Positions 21,958-28,448 of a DNA stretch of 64,000 nucleotides are shown here, piece by piece; position 1 is the stretch's first letter, and the number at the start of each line of letters is the position of its first letter. The notes beneath the pieces were generated by a model that was given only the letters and a program-made list of their open reading frames with translations, did not search any database and was not told where the DNA came from. Where the stretch lies: NCBI GenBank assembly GCA_044226015.1, contig JBGAHS010000010.1, positions 348,793-412,792 on the forward strand, in the 5' to 3' direction. The DNA comes from Candidatus Obscuribacteraceae bacterium (GTDB taxonomy: Bacteria > Cyanobacteriota > Vampirovibrionia > Obscuribacterales > Obscuribacteraceae). The translations under genes were made by a program, and so were the position numbers.

Positions 21958-22665
21958 GTGATGTTGTTGAAGAAAAGTGCGGTTCTGCTCCTTCTAGCCC
22001 TGGGAATTGGTGCTCCTGCATCGTTCTCTCAAGACCAGAAGCCGTTCGAGCTCGGAGTAGAGCAGAGAAACTTTCTTCCCGGCGAGCAACCTGCTGTTCC
22101 TCAGTATGGCAAGCCGATGATGATCGGACCGCCGCCAGTGACTGATACACATAAGACTCCGCCGCCCAAGAAAGAAAAGAAAATTAAAGCTTCTATTGAA
22201 CAGACTGCTCCTCCTCCTCCGCTGCAACGAATGCAGCCACAGCCTCAGCAACAGATGATGCAACCGGTGCAGGGAGTCTTGCCGCCACAATTTCTTGGAC
22301 GCTGGCAGGTGCTGGGTAATCGCAGCTCAGTAGAGGCGCAACCGCAATATCAATCTGGAATGGATAGCATCTTTTCGATGACCACATCTAATATGTGGAA
22401 CATTCAAGGCACTCCAGAGCAAGGTTACATGCTGAGCACCGACACAGGTGTGTCGACACCACTGATGGTGCAGACGCAAGGTAATACAGCAATTCTTCGC
22501 TATCAGCATCCCATACGAAACACCGTTGCACAAGAAGCGCTGGTTATGCAGCTTGGCCCGAATGGCGCCCAATTTGAGGGGCTGGAACGCATCAGCATTG
22601 TAAAACAGGGTGAGCCTGGACCTCGAGCCAAGGTGACTTACAAACTTATTGGTCGCAGGCAATAA
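21958..22665 (+). CDS. Exported protein, Pro-rich linker plus beta-rich C-terminal domain (paralog 1 of tandem pair)
   Basis: Signal peptide; GGAGG RBS; C-terminal ~130 aa closely similar to the next gene. Confidence 0.8.
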   Translation: MMLLKKSAVLLLLALGIGAPASFSQDQKPFELGVEQRNFLPGEQPAVPQYGKPMMIGPPPVTDTHKTPPPKKEKKIKASIEQTAPPPPLQRMQPQPQQQMMQPVQGVLPPQFLGRWQVLGNRSSVEAQPQYQSGMDSIFSMTTSNMWNIQGTPEQGYMLSTDTGVSTPLMVQTQGNTAILRYQHPIRNTVAQEALVMQLGPNGAQFEGLERISIVKQGEPGPRAKVTYKLIGRRQ

Positions 22666-22700: not shown

Positions 22701-23432
22701 ATGCCGCTCTGCAAAGGTGAATCCATGAATCATGCTCGTCTTCCCCTGGTGTTGGCGATGCTTTCAAGTACGTTGGTTCATTCTCAGGTCTCTTTCGCCG
22801 AAGATGGAACCTTGCTCAAAGGTGGTGTTAAGGATGGTGCTTACATTTCGGCACCAGCGGTTCAGCCCTATGGTACACCGCAGTATGCCAAGCCACAGTT
22901 TGTAGGTCCGCCGAAAATTCAAAAGGCAGCAATACAGACCTCTGTAACTAAACCAAAACCGCCTTTGCCGAAGCCAACACCTAAGCCGATTGTGAAACCT
23001 GTCGTGAGACCGGCACCGGTCAGAATGGCTCCGAAAGAGGACGTTCTTCCGCCTCAGTTCTTGGGCAGATGGAGCGTTAGCGGACAACGTTCGAGCATGG
23101 AAGGTCAGCCTCAATATCAAAGCGCGCTGGGTGGAATTTTTGCAGCCACCACCAGCAATACCTGGAACGTAACTGGTGATCCAGACCAGGGTTACCTGCT
23201 GACGACAGATTCTGGTGTGTCAACACCGCTAAGCGTTCACATGGAAAACGCCCAGACTGCAGTTCTTCAGTACAAGCATCCAATAAATAAAACGCTGGCG
23301 CTTGAAGCAGTAGTTTTGCAATTAAACCCGGGCGGAACTAGTTTCAGCGGCTTAGAGCGCATCTCTATTGTGAAACCTGGCGAGCCTGCACCGCGTGCGA
23401 AGGTTACTTACAAATTGTTCGGACGAAAATAA
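22701..23432 (+). CDS. Exported protein, paralog 2 of tandem pair (start may be ATG 22726)
   Basis: Shares VLPPQFLGRW, QPQYQS, GVSTPL, GLERISIVK.GEP.PRAKVTYKL.GR with the previous gene. Confidence 0.8.
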   Translation: MPLCKGESMNHARLPLVLAMLSSTLVHSQVSFAEDGTLLKGGVKDGAYISAPAVQPYGTPQYAKPQFVGPPKIQKAAIQTSVTKPKPPLPKPTPKPIVKPVVRPAPVRMAPKEDVLPPQFLGRWSVSGQRSSMEGQPQYQSALGGIFAATTSNTWNVTGDPDQGYLLTTDSGVSTPLSVHMENAQTAVLQYKHPINKTLALEAVVLQLNPGGTSFSGLERISIVKPGEPAPRAKVTYKLFGRK

Positions 23433-23926: not shown

Positions 23927-25252
23927 ATGATTGAAAACAAAAAGGGAAACTTGCTGGTGTCTACAGTTTTAAAAATCGGCACAATTCACCTTGCCATCGT
24001 TTTTGCAAGCTCCATAGGGTTGTTGGAGTTCTTTTCCACGCCGTCATCTGCTGCGGCAACAGCATCTGCAGACACCGCATCTGGTGGCGAGTTTGTAGAT
24101 CTGCAGACCCGACCTAGCACCGGACTTGAACCGCAACTTCAAGTGGCAAGTTCGGGTGAACTGCTCAGGCGCGGAATGGACGAAATGAATCGACAGTTTT
24201 ATGAGGCTGCGACTAAAGACTTTCGCGAGGTCTTGCGAAGAGAACCTGAAAATCTTGTTGCGCGAAATAACTTAGCTGTTGCACTGAAGAAGCAAGGGCA
24301 GCTAGAAGAAGCATTGGCTGAATACAAGAAAATTATTGAACAAAACCCAAATCGTGCAGAGTTGCATAACAATTTGGCATGCGCATATATGGCACAGGGC
24401 GATTTTCCCAAGGCGATGGAATCACTCTATCAGGCGATACATCTGAAGCCCGGCTATTTCGATGCGCGGTATAACCTCGCACACTTGCTCTTTCTCAATG
24501 GCGACAATGATGCTGCTATTGAGCAATATCAGGAAGCGGCGAAAGCGAACCCTAATTCTTCGATCACTCACCGAGACTTTGGCGATGCTCTGCGGGCTGG
24601 GGGGCAGATCAAACAGTCGATAATTGAGTACAAAACAGCGCAGAGGCTTGGTGATAATTCCACGCTGATTCTCGTGAAGCTCGGTCGAGCTGAGAAGGAT
24701 GCAAAAGAACTCGCGGAGGCGCAAAAAACCTTAGAACAGGCATTGCAGCGCGAGCCGAAGAATACTGAGGTTTTGAATTTGCTGGGCTTGGTGTCGTGGA
24801 GAGCGAAGCGCTTGCATGACGCGCAGTCGTATTTTGAGAAGGCGCTTGATATTGACCCCAAATATCCGCAGGCGAGAAACAATTTAGGTATGGTCTTGTA
24901 CGCGCTGCATCGGTATGATGACGCCGTCACTGTATGGCGACAGGCACTGAATCTGAAACCTGATTATGCCGAAGTTCACTTCAATATGGGTGCTGCGCTC
25001 TATCGTGCTGGTTTGTATAAGCCAGCAGCGGAAGCCTACGGCGAAAGCTTGAAGTATCACCCTGACGATGCTCTTGCTCATAACAATCGCGGATTGGCAC
25101 TTGCGAAGGTCGGTGAGAAGCAAGCCGCAATTGAAGAGTGGCGGAAGGCTTTGCAAATAAATCCAAACATGGGTCAGGCTCATGTGAACCTTGGGCGGCA
25201 ATTGATTCTGGATGCGCCAGCTCCAAAAGATGACATACATGAAAGCGGTTAA
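23927..25252 (+). CDS. Tetratricopeptide repeat protein, N-terminally anchored or exported
   Basis: About 10 TPR units (ARNNLAVAL, LHNNLACAY, ARYNLAHLL, AHNNRGLAL). Confidence 0.92.
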   Translation: MIENKKGNLLVSTVLKIGTIHLAIVFASSIGLLEFFSTPSSAAATASADTASGGEFVDLQTRPSTGLEPQLQVASSGELLRRGMDEMNRQFYEAATKDFREVLRREPENLVARNNLAVALKKQGQLEEALAEYKKIIEQNPNRAELHNNLACAYMAQGDFPKAMESLYQAIHLKPGYFDARYNLAHLLFLNGDNDAAIEQYQEAAKANPNSSITHRDFGDALRAGGQIKQSIIEYKTAQRLGDNSTLILVKLGRAEKDAKELAEAQKTLEQALQREPKNTEVLNLLGLVSWRAKRLHDAQSYFEKALDIDPKYPQARNNLGMVLYALHRYDDAVTVWRQALNLKPDYAEVHFNMGAALYRAGLYKPAAEAYGESLKYHPDDALAHNNRGLALAKVGEKQAAIEEWRKALQINPNMGQAHVNLGRQLILDAPAPKDDIHESG

Positions 25253-25308
25253 GTAATTAAAAAAACGTCCTGCGGTATCATTTAGTCCGTACAGGTCTGA
25301 CTTGGAGT

Positions 25309-25710
25309 TTGGTACAGATGGACGGGACAGAACATTTCGACTTAGCAGCTACTATGGACGCCATCACACAGGGGATTGTCTCGATTGTCTGCCGTATAGG
25401 GTTCGAAGCTGCGGTTCATGGGCTCGTACTTGCTGGGGTGGTCCTGGCTGCATCGCTTTTCTATGCAACCAGGAAGCATCGCTTCGCCAAACCGCTGGTC
25501 ACAGTGGCTAAGAAGCTCTCTATCTTCTGCGCTATCATTGCTATTCCGGGAGTAATAAGCCTGGTCAGCACCGGAAAGTTGCCGCCGATCAATTCCTTAC
25601 AGCTTTCTTCTGTAGGCTTGATCGGATTCTGGACTCTCGTGACTCTGCACCTTTGCATGGAAGAAATCAATTTCCAGTTGATTCAATCTCGTGGAAGTCA
25701 GAAAGGCTAG
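25309..25710 (+). CDS. Small hypothetical membrane protein (3 TM)
   Basis: 133-aa ORF with three hydrophobic segments. Confidence 0.7.
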   Translation: MVQMDGTEHFDLAATMDAITQGIVSIVCRIGFEAAVHGLVLAGVVLAASLFYATRKHRFAKPLVTVAKKLSIFCAIIAIPGVISLVSTGKLPPINSLQLSSVGLIGFWTLVTLHLCMEEINFQLIQSRGSQKG

Positions 25711-25931
25711 AAGTTCCTCCGGGAAGTACTGTCCTGCTGTTCTGTGGGGATCTTGTCGACTAAATTCTGTTAGCTTTCTTCCAAGATTTTTTTTCGCTGT
25801 TGGAAAACGCTGGATTCCACTTTTGTTGCTAGATGCTCCTGTCTGGCTTGGCTCTTTGCTGTTTTCTTGGTCTATTTGTGGGGTACTTTTTCCAATCGCG
25901 TTGTTGGAATGCATAGCGATATCTTGAAATC

Positions 25932-26166
25932 ATTGCAGCCCCCCCAGCAGCAAGTAAACAAATTGACCGAGCCCCAACCCCCCCCTCAAAGGCTCGTCAA
26001 TGGAAGGAAGGAGACAACATCCCCCCCACGTTGTCGCCTCAAAAAAAGAAAGCAGCTACCGCTGTCCGGACTAGTAAGCCACCCCGAAAGTTGAGCCCCC
26101 CCTCTCCAACTCGGATTTACTAATTGTTCGGCTACCTGAGTCCAGGCGGTAGCTGTTTTTTTTTTT
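25932..26166 (+). ncRNA. Candidate small RNA with four C-rich-loop hairpins (6C-like) and U-tail
   Basis: C7 (25939-45), C8 (25978-85), C7 (26021-27) and C7 (26096-102) tracts each lie in a hairpin loop; final 10-bp stem 26053-62/26146-55 followed by T11. Confidence 0.7.
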
Positions 26167-26287
26167 GCCTATATTGAGCAAATTAAATGACTAAAAGCCC
26201 CGCACGTGCGAGACTTCCATTGGCGTTTGGGGATTCAGCAGCAATAGCCGCTGAGCAGGTTGGCTAGCCTTCGGGCTAGGTTGGAAT

Positions 26288-27703
26288 ATGGATATGGGCA
26301 TGATCAAAAATTTGAAACTGGCAAAAATTCCATTTGTAGGAATGTCGTTTTTTGCAACTACTATTCTTTCGATGCCGTTCGCTCATGGTGAGTCCACCGA
26401 CAGCATTCACTGCTATGTCACAAGCAATGACAAAAAGTGCACAGAACAGGCTGCGTTGAACTTCAAATCTGCTGACGCAAATGGTGATGTTATCAGCATA
26501 GGAAACGAAAAGAAGCAAGAAATACTCGGCTTCGGTGGTGCGTTTACTGATGCTGCTTGTTACAACTTCAAAGATTTGTCTTCCGAATCGCGAAGCAAAC
26601 TTTTCAACAATCTCTTTTCTCCATCGGAATTGGGGCTCAACTTTTGTCGTATCTGTGTAGGCGCGAGCGACTATGCGACCAAAGCCTATAGTTATGATGA
26701 AGGTGAACCAGATCCTGAGATGAAGCGCTTTTCCATAGCACATGATACTCAGTGGATTTTGCCGGCGCTAAAGGAAGCGCGCAAGGTGAACCCAGATATC
26801 TTTTTGCTTGCGTCACCCTGGAGCCCGCCAGGATGGATGAAACCTAACAACTCGATGTTGGGTGGCAACATACAAAGAAAGAGCTTTGAACCTTATTCCA
26901 AGTACTTCATTCGTTTTCTGAAGGCTTACGAAGAGGCAGGCGTGCCAGTTAATGCTGTCACTGTGCAAAATGAAGTTGATACGGATCAAGATAGTCGCAT
27001 GCCAGCATGTTTGTGGCCGCAAGAGTACGAAATGGATTTTGTCAGACAGTTTCTTGGACCTTCCATTCAAAAAGAAAATCTCAAAACTAAGGTCTGGATT
27101 ATCGACCACAACTATAATCTCTGGGGCAGAGCAATTGACGAGCTTGAAGGCGACGACATGCTCAAGTACGTCGGTGGAATTGCATGGCATGGATACGTGG
27201 GTTCGCCTACTCTGATGACCAGAGTTCACAATGCGTTTCCTCAGGTTGATATGTACTGGACTGAAGGCGGACCTGACGTCACTCAGCCAGACTACAAAAC
27301 AGATTGGGTTAAGTGGTCAACTTCGTTCTCTGGAATTTTGAATAACTGGTGCCGCGGCATTATCGCGTGGAATCTGGCTCTGGATGAAGAGGGTAAGCCA
27401 AACATAGGACCATTCCCTTGTGGTGGCATGGTTACAATCAACTCCAAAACAAAGGATATTTCCTACAGCGGACAGTATTGGGCGATGTCTCAATATTCTA
27501 GATTTATCAAGCGTGGTGCACATGTGCTCAACAGTGAAACCAATGCGAAGGATTTGTCGGTTATGGCTGCAGAAAATCCTGATGGAAAGACTGTACTTGT
27601 TGCCACCAATGGCGGTGGCTCACGAAAAGTGTCTCTGAAGGTGAAAGGCAAAGTAGCTGAATTGCAGCTAGATCCTAATTCCGTTTCTACCTTCGTTTGG
27701 TAA
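26288..27703 (+). CDS. Glycoside hydrolase family 30 (glucosylceramidase/SrfJ-like), exported
   Basis: QEILGFGGAFTDAA, LASPWSPPGWMK, TVQNE (acid/base), IIDHN, YWTEG (nucleophile), WNLALD. Confidence 0.92.
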   Translation: MDMGMIKNLKLAKIPFVGMSFFATTILSMPFAHGESTDSIHCYVTSNDKKCTEQAALNFKSADANGDVISIGNEKKQEILGFGGAFTDAACYNFKDLSSESRSKLFNNLFSPSELGLNFCRICVGASDYATKAYSYDEGEPDPEMKRFSIAHDTQWILPALKEARKVNPDIFLLASPWSPPGWMKPNNSMLGGNIQRKSFEPYSKYFIRFLKAYEEAGVPVNAVTVQNEVDTDQDSRMPACLWPQEYEMDFVRQFLGPSIQKENLKTKVWIIDHNYNLWGRAIDELEGDDMLKYVGGIAWHGYVGSPTLMTRVHNAFPQVDMYWTEGGPDVTQPDYKTDWVKWSTSFSGILNNWCRGIIAWNLALDEEGKPNIGPFPCGGMVTINSKTKDISYSGQYWAMSQYSRFIKRGAHVLNSETNAKDLSVMAAENPDGKTVLVATNGGGSRKVSLKVKGKVAELQLDPNSVSTFVW

Positions 27704-27740
27704 CTCGTGTACAATTGAAGTGAGATGCCGAGGATGCCTT

Positions 27741-28448
27741 ATGAATCTTAAATTGCTCAGCTTTTCAGTTCTGATGGCTGGCTTGCTTGCGCAAACATCA
27801 GTCTATGCGCAATATGGACAGTCTGGCTATTACGGCAATTCCACCAACCGATACCCTAACGTGTTGCCGACCAGCGGTGTGATGGGACCAAACATGCAGA
27901 CCTACTCTCAGTATGGTCGAAACCCAGCCACTGGCGGCTATGGCGGATATGGTGGCTATTATGGTCAATATCCTTATGCAAATCAGCCTGGCTACGGCTA
28001 CTACACTGCCAGCCCGTACCTGAATTCTTATCCTGCACTTGGTTCTCCCGTTCCTGTTAACGGTGGAATGTTCAGGTTCAACATCGGTGGCTTCTCTGGT
28101 TCTTACTGGAGAGCGCCTTCCGGTTACTACTATCCATGGGGTGCCGGCGCTGTATTTGCTACTCCGGCACCAGTGATTATCGTTAATAATGGAAGCTCTC
28201 AGGTGGCGCAGCCTCCTGTTGGTGATTTATTCAAGGACATGAGTTCCTATATAGAGGATCAAAACACCAAGAAGAAGCTTAAGCCCGACGATTACCAGCA
28301 TCTGGCGCGTCGACTCCGTGACCTGCAGGGAATGGAAGCTTCGATGCGGACAAGGAACAATGGTTCTCTTGACCCTGATGATGAGGAAACTCTTCGTAAG
28401 GATGCGGCTATGTTGTCTGGGGATATAAGTAGAAGAATCCTACCCTAG
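27741..28448 (+). CDS. Exported hypothetical protein with Tyr/Gly-rich N-terminal half and helical C-terminus
   Basis: GAGGA RBS before ATG 27741; signal peptide ending VYA-Q. Confidence 0.75.
   Translation: MNLKLLSFSVLMAGLLAQTSVYAQYGQSGYYGNSTNRYPNVLPTSGVMGPNMQTYSQYGRNPATGGYGGYGGYYGQYPYANQPGYGYYTASPYLNSYPALGSPVPVNGGMFRFNIGGFSGSYWRAPSGYYYPWGAGAVFATPAPVIIVNNGSSQVAQPPVGDLFKDMSSYIEDQNTKKKLKPDDYQHLARRLRDLQGMEASMRTRNNGSLDPDDEETLRKDAAMLSGDISRRILP

Follow-up and report, generated by a model that had tools for sequence, protein, structure and literature searches.

Unpaired seeds of the UCCC type, aimed at ribosome-binding sites, are a feature of the small RNAs RsaE/RoxS, LhrC, and RNAIII. In cyanobacteria, the RNA Yfr1 is described as blocking ribosome-binding sites with a single-stranded C-rich ACUCCUCACAC motif (PMC2796815), and the actinobacterial 6C RNA is described as pairing its C-rich loops with an AGGGGGG site of panD without the help of a chaperone (PMC6486639). 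Here, we describe a locus from the Melainabacteria, which are non-photosynthetic and uncultured relatives of the cyanobacteria, in which several poly-C loops are predicted to be displayed on adjacent hairpins, and we compare it with these and other known systems.

The window (i.e., the whole 64-kb stretch of DNA that was analysed) contains a cluster of C runs starting at positions 25939 (C7), 25978 (C8), 26021 (C7), and 26096 (C7). These are the only runs of at least six C on the + strand of the window, in which four isolated G6–G8 runs are found elsewhere. Both strands of the 8.19-Mb genome contain 78 C runs of at least seven, and only at this locus are four of them clustered; the Poisson chance of a four-run cluster within 170 nt is approximately 7e-9 per genome. 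The one other four-run cluster in the genome (runs of at least six) is a G6 series on contig C11 with an even 21-nt spacing. The element is single-copy in the genome and lies in a 577 bp gap between an ORF for a 133-aa hydrophobic protein without a Pfam family (25309..25710, + strand), which serves as a synteny anchor outside the RNA, and a gene assigned by Pfam as a GH30 glycosidase (26288..27703, + strand). The original prediction had placed four C7–C8 tracts in hairpin loops within an intergenic gap of ~580 bp and had noticed no comparable C runs elsewhere in the window. All of this holds: the coordinates match, the C runs at all four sites are predicted to be unpaired with a probability of 0.86–1.0, and the region folds with an MFE of −76.6 kcal/mol (z-score −5.57; 0/200 shuffles equally stable). 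We predict a small RNA of ~235 nt (25932..26166, + strand), the start of which is placed from the spacing to the −10 element and the end from the U-tract. Two other features of the window were observed. A CTAGCC-TTCG-GGCTAG hairpin with a UUCG tetraloop (26264–26279) is located 8 nt upstream of the first ATG of the GH30 ORF, and two adjacent, clearly similar ORFs of secreted type (21958–22665 and 22701–23432), which have Pro-rich linkers and match no Pfam family, are likely a tandem duplication.

Seven homologous RNAs of the type found in the genus g1 have folding z-scores between −3.8 and −7.2. In all seven, the loops of hairpins H2 (25962..26001, + strand; C8 loop) and H3 (26009..26039, + strand; C7 loop) and of the apical hairpin H4 (26084..26114, + strand; C7 loop at 26096–26102) have runs of at least five C, which are predicted to be unpaired with a probability of 0.82–1.0. 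Hairpin H1 (25933..25953, + strand; C7 loop) is dispensable, having a C-loop in 4/7 homologues and a tetraloop in the other three, so that of the four C-loops originally proposed those of H2 to H4 are retained throughout while that of H1 is not essential. Because MAFFT misaligned H2 and H3, co-variation of the stems was assessed with an alignment-free arm-swap test, in which the 20 nt on either side of the C-run were paired as native and as cross-species duplexes (5,040 permutations). The native arms of H2 pair better than swapped arms (−14.9 versus −11.3 kcal/mol, p = 0.010), as do those of H3 (−13.3 versus −8.4 kcal/mol, p = 0.0002), across the seven homologues. The difference was not significant for H4 (−9.5 versus −8.4 kcal/mol, p = 0.09), and no co-variation signal was detected for the arms of H1 in a fold-based variant of this test. 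The background arm duplex energy for 2,924 genomic runs of at least five C is −6.6. Loop length and flanks drift freely among the homologues (C4–C11), and the number of C-loops varies between genera from one or two up to four or five. The suggestion that stems which differ in sequence beneath a recurring loop reflect selection on structure is thus supported, with concerted stem changes found in H2 and H3 of homologues that keep their C-loops.

H4 is the tip of a long 3′ rod (26053..26155, + strand) which is closed by the basal helix CAGCTACCGC/GCGGTAGCTG (26053–62/26146–55) and has two predicted inner folds of nearly equal energy. The basal helix is always formed in the predictions (pairing probability 0.99–1.0); among eight sequences, 98.9% of cells are paired and 8/11 pairs are invariant. 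Its core, YACCGC/GCGGTR, is conserved in sequence across genera despite being double-stranded. The inner folds A and B differ by 0.7–3.5 kcal/mol in 7/7 close homologues. Fold A has one pair changed on both sides (379/500 shuffles scored as high), and fold B, a plain rod, has seven two-sided pair changes (2/500 shuffles), most of which come from the divergent row G084, which itself folds otherwise. The pair counts favour fold B, resting largely on this one divergent row, and are proof of neither fold. The rod is followed by a T11 tract (26156..26166, + strand), likely a terminator tail; at least six T are found within 8 nt past the helix in 7/7 homologues. The T11 tract after the closing helix is therefore present as originally noted; its role as a tail is ambiguous, as it pairs with an A-tract (~26042–52) in the MFE structure. 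Of the two ends of the RNA, the 3′ end is the less secure, since in other genera the corresponding strand is base-paired as an extension of the rod and a separate hairpin comes after it. Immediately 3′ of the rod, G003 (L046) has an extra hairpin with a C5 loop and a T-rich tail, and G084 (L050) has a long, near-perfect palindrome of ~50 bp.

A DNA search identified the element in 5/7 other genomes of the same genus. Model R1, a covariance model of the rod built from six sequences and run over 104 genomes of the family, matched just its six source genomes and missed divergent syntenic copies; absence at the site is therefore not equivalent to absence from the genome. The upstream 133-aa protein is present in 95/107 genomes of the order, mostly without the RNA behind it, and we inspected the DNA behind its gene in 70 of these 95 genomes. 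The cassette was found at the syntenic site in 11/70, representing five genera of Ca. Obscuribacterales: six genomes of g1, G084 (g43), G077 and G078 (g38), G082 (g41), and G081 (g40). It is absent at this site in the other 59, which include G001 of the same genus and G018, where the sequence ends 239 nt past the upstream gene. A metagenome scan returned two loci, one of which (L073) is a true homologue and the twelfth copy, the other (L074) a chance match. A 20-base motif of the rod had no match in viral contigs, and a three-C-run pattern matched 69/104 genomes, mostly in repeats and with equal counts in controls.

The order of the cassette is conserved: a promoter box, a −10 element, hairpins with C-loops, and the rod. 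Outside g1, the copies are reduced in length and have one or two C-rich hairpins ahead of the rod, yet they fold better than shuffled sequences (z-scores of −6.1 for G084, −5.6 for G082, −3.2 for G077, −2.7 for G078, and −3.5 for G081, which has a C4 loop only). The downstream gene is co-oriented in 12/12 loci and is of six different kinds, encoding a GH30 glycosidase in four, a Tyr/Gly-rich protein of secreted type in four, and four unrelated products in the remaining four. As judged from this distribution, the element is a conserved putative RNA gene of Ca. Obscuribacterales that is independent of the downstream gene.

All 12 loci have a putative regulator box, TTCCAAT-N5-TGTTGGAA (25890..25909, + strand), an imperfect palindrome straddling a −35-like hexamer (25896–25901). 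In each of them the box starts 42 nt upstream of the RNA start and is followed, exactly 10 bp past its end, by a −10-like hexamer, which is TATCTT at this locus (25920..25925, + strand) and conforms to TAnnnT in 6/6 genus homologues. A simple promoter scan did not find a sigma-70 site, the promoter being visible by comparison only. The 5′ end proposed at 25932 fits this conserved promoter. Box-like half-sites (TTCCAA ... TGTTGGAA) recur ~110 bp before the main box (25779–25805), this time separated by 15 nt. Genome-wide, TTCCAA-N-TTGGAA occurs 15 times with an 8-nt spacer and 0–8 times with other spacers. There are 12 exact boxes in the genome, ten of which are followed by a −10 hexamer with A2 and T6, and among 87 distinct boxes A2/T6 is found in 71, compared with 2–13 when the position is shifted by one or two bases. 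The central hexamer begins with TTG in 48 of the 87. A TTG-starting hexamer and a fixed spacing to the −10 element suggest that a −35 element is located between the half-sites, 18 bp from the −10 element, an arrangement that we read as a probable activator-type promoter. In promoters controlled by CtrA and lambda CII, regulator half-sites also flank the −35 hexamer. The box resembles these in the placement of half-sites around a TTG-starting hexamer, and in having Tad/Flp genes among the controlled set, but differs in sequence and in its 18-bp spacer.

The box is found in 40/104 genomes of the family and in 1/153 other sampled genomes of the class. A Pfam scan of 53 of the 62 box-linked ORFs (nine were omitted) identified TadE/G-like (four, one weak), FecR (three), LRV (five), TPR (six, one weak), Ser/Thr kinase (two), and response-regulator (three) domains, and the same gene types are located behind boxes in the window's genome. 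TTCCAAT-N5-TGTTGGAA-N10-TAnnnT thus appears to define a regulon, apparently undescribed; a literature search on the half-sites returned nothing evidently concerning this motif. The response regulator P0001, encoded next to one of the boxes, was considered as the protein that binds the box but is not supported in this role, as it has a weak GerE match (E = 0.048), is found in 96/104 genomes compared with 40/104 for the box, and was not found in the box-bearing genomes G019, G117, G118, and G119. Roughly 60 box sites elsewhere in relatives, a subset of all boxes, were read downstream by eye and none had a comparable multi-C-loop RNA. Several other features were observed beside boxes. At L078 (5–2230), genes for a sensor kinase and a NarL-like response regulator precede a box, behind which is a short Flp-pilin-like ORF; a similar ORF is located behind a box in L114 (both by eye, and neither with a Pfam match). 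In G003, a box is located beside the NarL-like regulator. C/U-rich stretches are present in leaders behind boxes in L090, L092, L097, L110, and L120, and those of L092 and L097 are predicted to pair with G-rich, Shine-Dalgarno-like sequence downstream in the same leader. A box-driven ORF for a 67-aa acidic protein of no known family is located between convergent genes in L079 (1346–1546, − strand).

Rfam searches did not assign the element to a family. Positions 24000–28000 of the window returned three matches (E = 0.37–8.6), none of them meaningful, and no match to 6C at E ≤ 10; the 11 homologous loci likewise gave no meaningful match, and none to 6C at E ≤ 1. Neither 6C nor cuckoo RNAs, the two families against which a scan had been proposed, were matched. 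No conserved ORF was found in the element among the homologues, which argues against the protein-coding alternative. We conclude that the element represents a predicted non-coding, structured RNA family outside Rfam, as had been raised as a possibility: a new family with a known design that has evolved repeatedly. Housekeeping RNAs were also considered and set aside. The ~180–200-nt rod expected of 6S RNA (RF00013) is represented by a separate 6S-like locus (L029; G000:C6:800550–800755, − strand), which is conserved in 5/5 relatives searched, and an SRP RNA match (RF00169) above the cut-off is located on contig C1. L029 and its counterparts L279–L283 score 23–44 bits, below the Rfam gathering score, and are 70–79% conserved; L029 is probably the 6S RNA of the family. 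A CsrB/RsmY-type sponge was rejected because the loops are poly-C and not GGA and CsrA was not found in the genome, which is 92% complete, and a Y-like RNA because the same genome has no Ro60/TROVE match.

The element resembles 6C/B11 in having pure C-runs in hairpin loops, for which a G-run ribosome-binding site is the natural partner (PMC6486639), but has three or four C-loops and a rod of ~105 nt where 6C is described as a small RNA with two C-rich loops. It also belongs to a different phylum, has its own promoter box, and lacks the Rfam match. With the alphaproteobacterial cuckoo/CcsR/ar14 RNAs it shares a design of two to four adjacent hairpins in which the loop is conserved and the stems and number of modules vary (PMC4615179), but the CCUCCUCCC loop by which those RNAs are defined is present in 0/12 homologues, and here there is a single copy per genome with a long rod as the last module. 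Yfr1 is from the nearest lineage and also has a C-rich single-stranded motif, but in published accounts it has one fixed ACUCCUCACAC, compared with several poly-C loops of patchy occurrence within one family here; ACUCCUCACAC is absent from the homologue sequences and there is no Rfam match to Yfr1. Myxobacterial Pxr is likewise regulator-driven and multi-hairpin, with a sequence-conserved segment in its last stem, but its promoter is described as sigma-54 dependent (PMC5684412), and again no Rfam match was found here. RsaE/RoxS, LhrC, and RNAIII also lack an Rfam match here, and they differ in loop length and architecture. A library search of article texts found no regulatory or structured RNA or promoter motif for Melainabacteria, and a term search of PMC12873609 gave no mention of this group. 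The original description of the locus as lying outside the lineages known for such RNAs is consistent with this search in that no small-RNA study of Melainabacteria was found, but needs qualifying in that cyanobacterial relatives have the C-rich Yfr1 (PMC2796815).

The 3′ end of the 16S rRNA is GATCACCTCCTTT. The loops read (U)CCCCC(C), often UCCCCC or CCCCUC, and CCUCCU is present in 0/12 homologues, so their best partners are expected to be G-run sites, as for 6C RNA, rather than the core AGGAGG. The proposed anti-Shine-Dalgarno role is thus plausible for ribosome-binding sites with G-runs but less well matched to the core motif. GGGGG occurs 123 times at positions −20 to −1 of predicted starts, compared with 6–21 times per 10-nt bin elsewhere, and 96/5,575 predicted genes have a run of at least five G in this interval. 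Loop pairing of −12 kcal/mol or stronger is predicted for 350/5,575 start regions; two control regions gave 202 and 173. This enrichment demonstrates feasibility only, since it is expected in any genome that uses Shine-Dalgarno sequences. The genome as a whole shows no depletion of G5 or G6 runs (observed/expected 0.95 and 1.05, respectively). The most promising candidate, a type IV pilin gene with a G6 site, was rejected as a conserved target, as a run of at least five G was found in 3/24 pilin-like genes of RNA-bearing genomes and 0/21 of others (one row, G089, lacked a start codon and was dropped). No conserved mRNA target emerged from this one conservation test. Tandem arrays of two to four type IV pilin-like genes are present in g1 and close genera (L213:630–2302, L220–L229), and single pilin paralogues in G000, G002, and G006 have G5–G6 runs before the start.

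Searches of the genome, which is 92% complete, did not recover CsrA, Rho, or Ro60. The only Hfq match was to the Pfam family “Hfq related”, under the cut-off for canonical Hfq, and looks like the cyanobacterial form; this 79-aa protein is encoded directly upstream of an mreB-like gene (L169:1459–1698). Cyanobacterial Hfq is described as not being an RNA chaperone (PMC10989914).

The element has the traits of a trans-acting small RNA, with its own promoter and terminator and no conserved ORF, as read from sequence only. We consider it somewhat more probable than its competitors combined (roughly 55%) that the RNA is a trans-acting, chaperone-independent repressor which pairs its poly-C loops with G-rich ribosome-binding sites. 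A regulator binding the box around the −35 element would induce both the RNA and a set of genes for surface and signalling functions. Once made, the RNA would pair its exposed loops with the G-rich ribosome-binding regions of many mRNAs and repress their translation in trans. Its three or four loops would be mutually redundant seeds, each able to start a G-C-rich duplex unaided by an RNA chaperone, and the long rod at the 3′ end would add to the stability of the RNA and bring about termination at the U-tract. Sequence comparison establishes the promoter layout, the conservation of the loops, and the concerted change of the H2 and H3 stems. Loop pairing does not account for the strong conservation of the rod sequence, and the drifting loops suit protein binding equally well.

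The main rival to repression by base pairing is that the RNA acts as a multivalent sponge, binding a protein that recognises poly-C or pyrimidines (e.g., an RRM protein), much as CsrB acts on CsrA. Identical loops recurring on unrelated stems, in numbers that vary by genus, are the layout of a sponge, the genome encodes five RRM-domain proteins, and the lack of an emerging conserved mRNA target also fits. Set against this, neither CsrA nor Rho was found, no gene for an RNA-binding protein is located beside the RNA in the window, and the C-loop RNAs with a tested mechanism in the literature consulted, 6C and Yfr1, are described as base-pairing (PMC6486639, PMC2796815), leaving the sponge a possible but distinctly less probable reading. 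It is quite unlikely that the element serves the downstream gene as a 5′ leader or attenuator, with the rod and U-tract forming a regulated terminator. The co-orientation of the downstream gene in every locus would suit such a leader, as would the two near-equal inner folds of the rod and the predicted pairing of the H1 loop (and also H2 in the window's genome) with downstream sequence in some homologues when 150 nt of read-through are allowed. However, the basal helix is kept in both folds and the best fold without it costs 4–17 kcal/mol, so an antiterminator is not evident; the downstream genes are too varied, being of six kinds, and G077 and G078 have a −10-like hexamer right before the downstream start codon (by eye).

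Conservation of the rod core across genera, although it is double-stranded, raises the slightly less probable alternative that the RNA titrates a G-rich regulatory RNA, or that the rod itself is the main functional unit as a scaffold for protein binding or processing; accumulation of Pxr is described as requiring a conserved 8-bp stem segment (PMC5684412). No long complement was found elsewhere in the genome (best E = 0.6), 6S and SRP RNAs have their own loci, and Ro60, the partner of Y-like RNA, was not found; these observations count against this alternative. Finally, the cassette is missing at the site in 59/70 genomes, including one from the same genus, as might be expected if the region were non-functional (a product of chance or homopolymer error, or the 3′ end of the upstream gene). 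This is very improbable given that independent assemblies retain the C-loops, the co-varying stems, and the exactly spaced promoter.

In a more far-reaching reading, the RNA could be the post-transcriptional arm of an as yet undescribed lifestyle switch in Melainabacteria, in which one regulator induces Tad-pilus and surface genes via the box while the RNA silences G-rich mRNAs or absorbs RRM proteins. In this speculative and rather doubtful scenario, the loops would have been gained module by module within one family, from one or two to four, and the rod would flip between its two folds as a control. The design of the RNA is already known, and the surprise is accordingly moderate. The locus nevertheless provides the Melainabacteria with both a family of RNAs whose ends are predicted exactly and a promoter box from which the timing of their synthesis can be predicted. 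It would be another independent case of a poly-C-loop RNA, in a lineage seemingly without RNA-binding Hfq, CsrA, and Rho, and as such would support the pairing of C-loops with G-runs as a strategy adopted by default for regulation without a chaperone. Among these genera, the natural series of loop numbers makes the value of multivalency testable.
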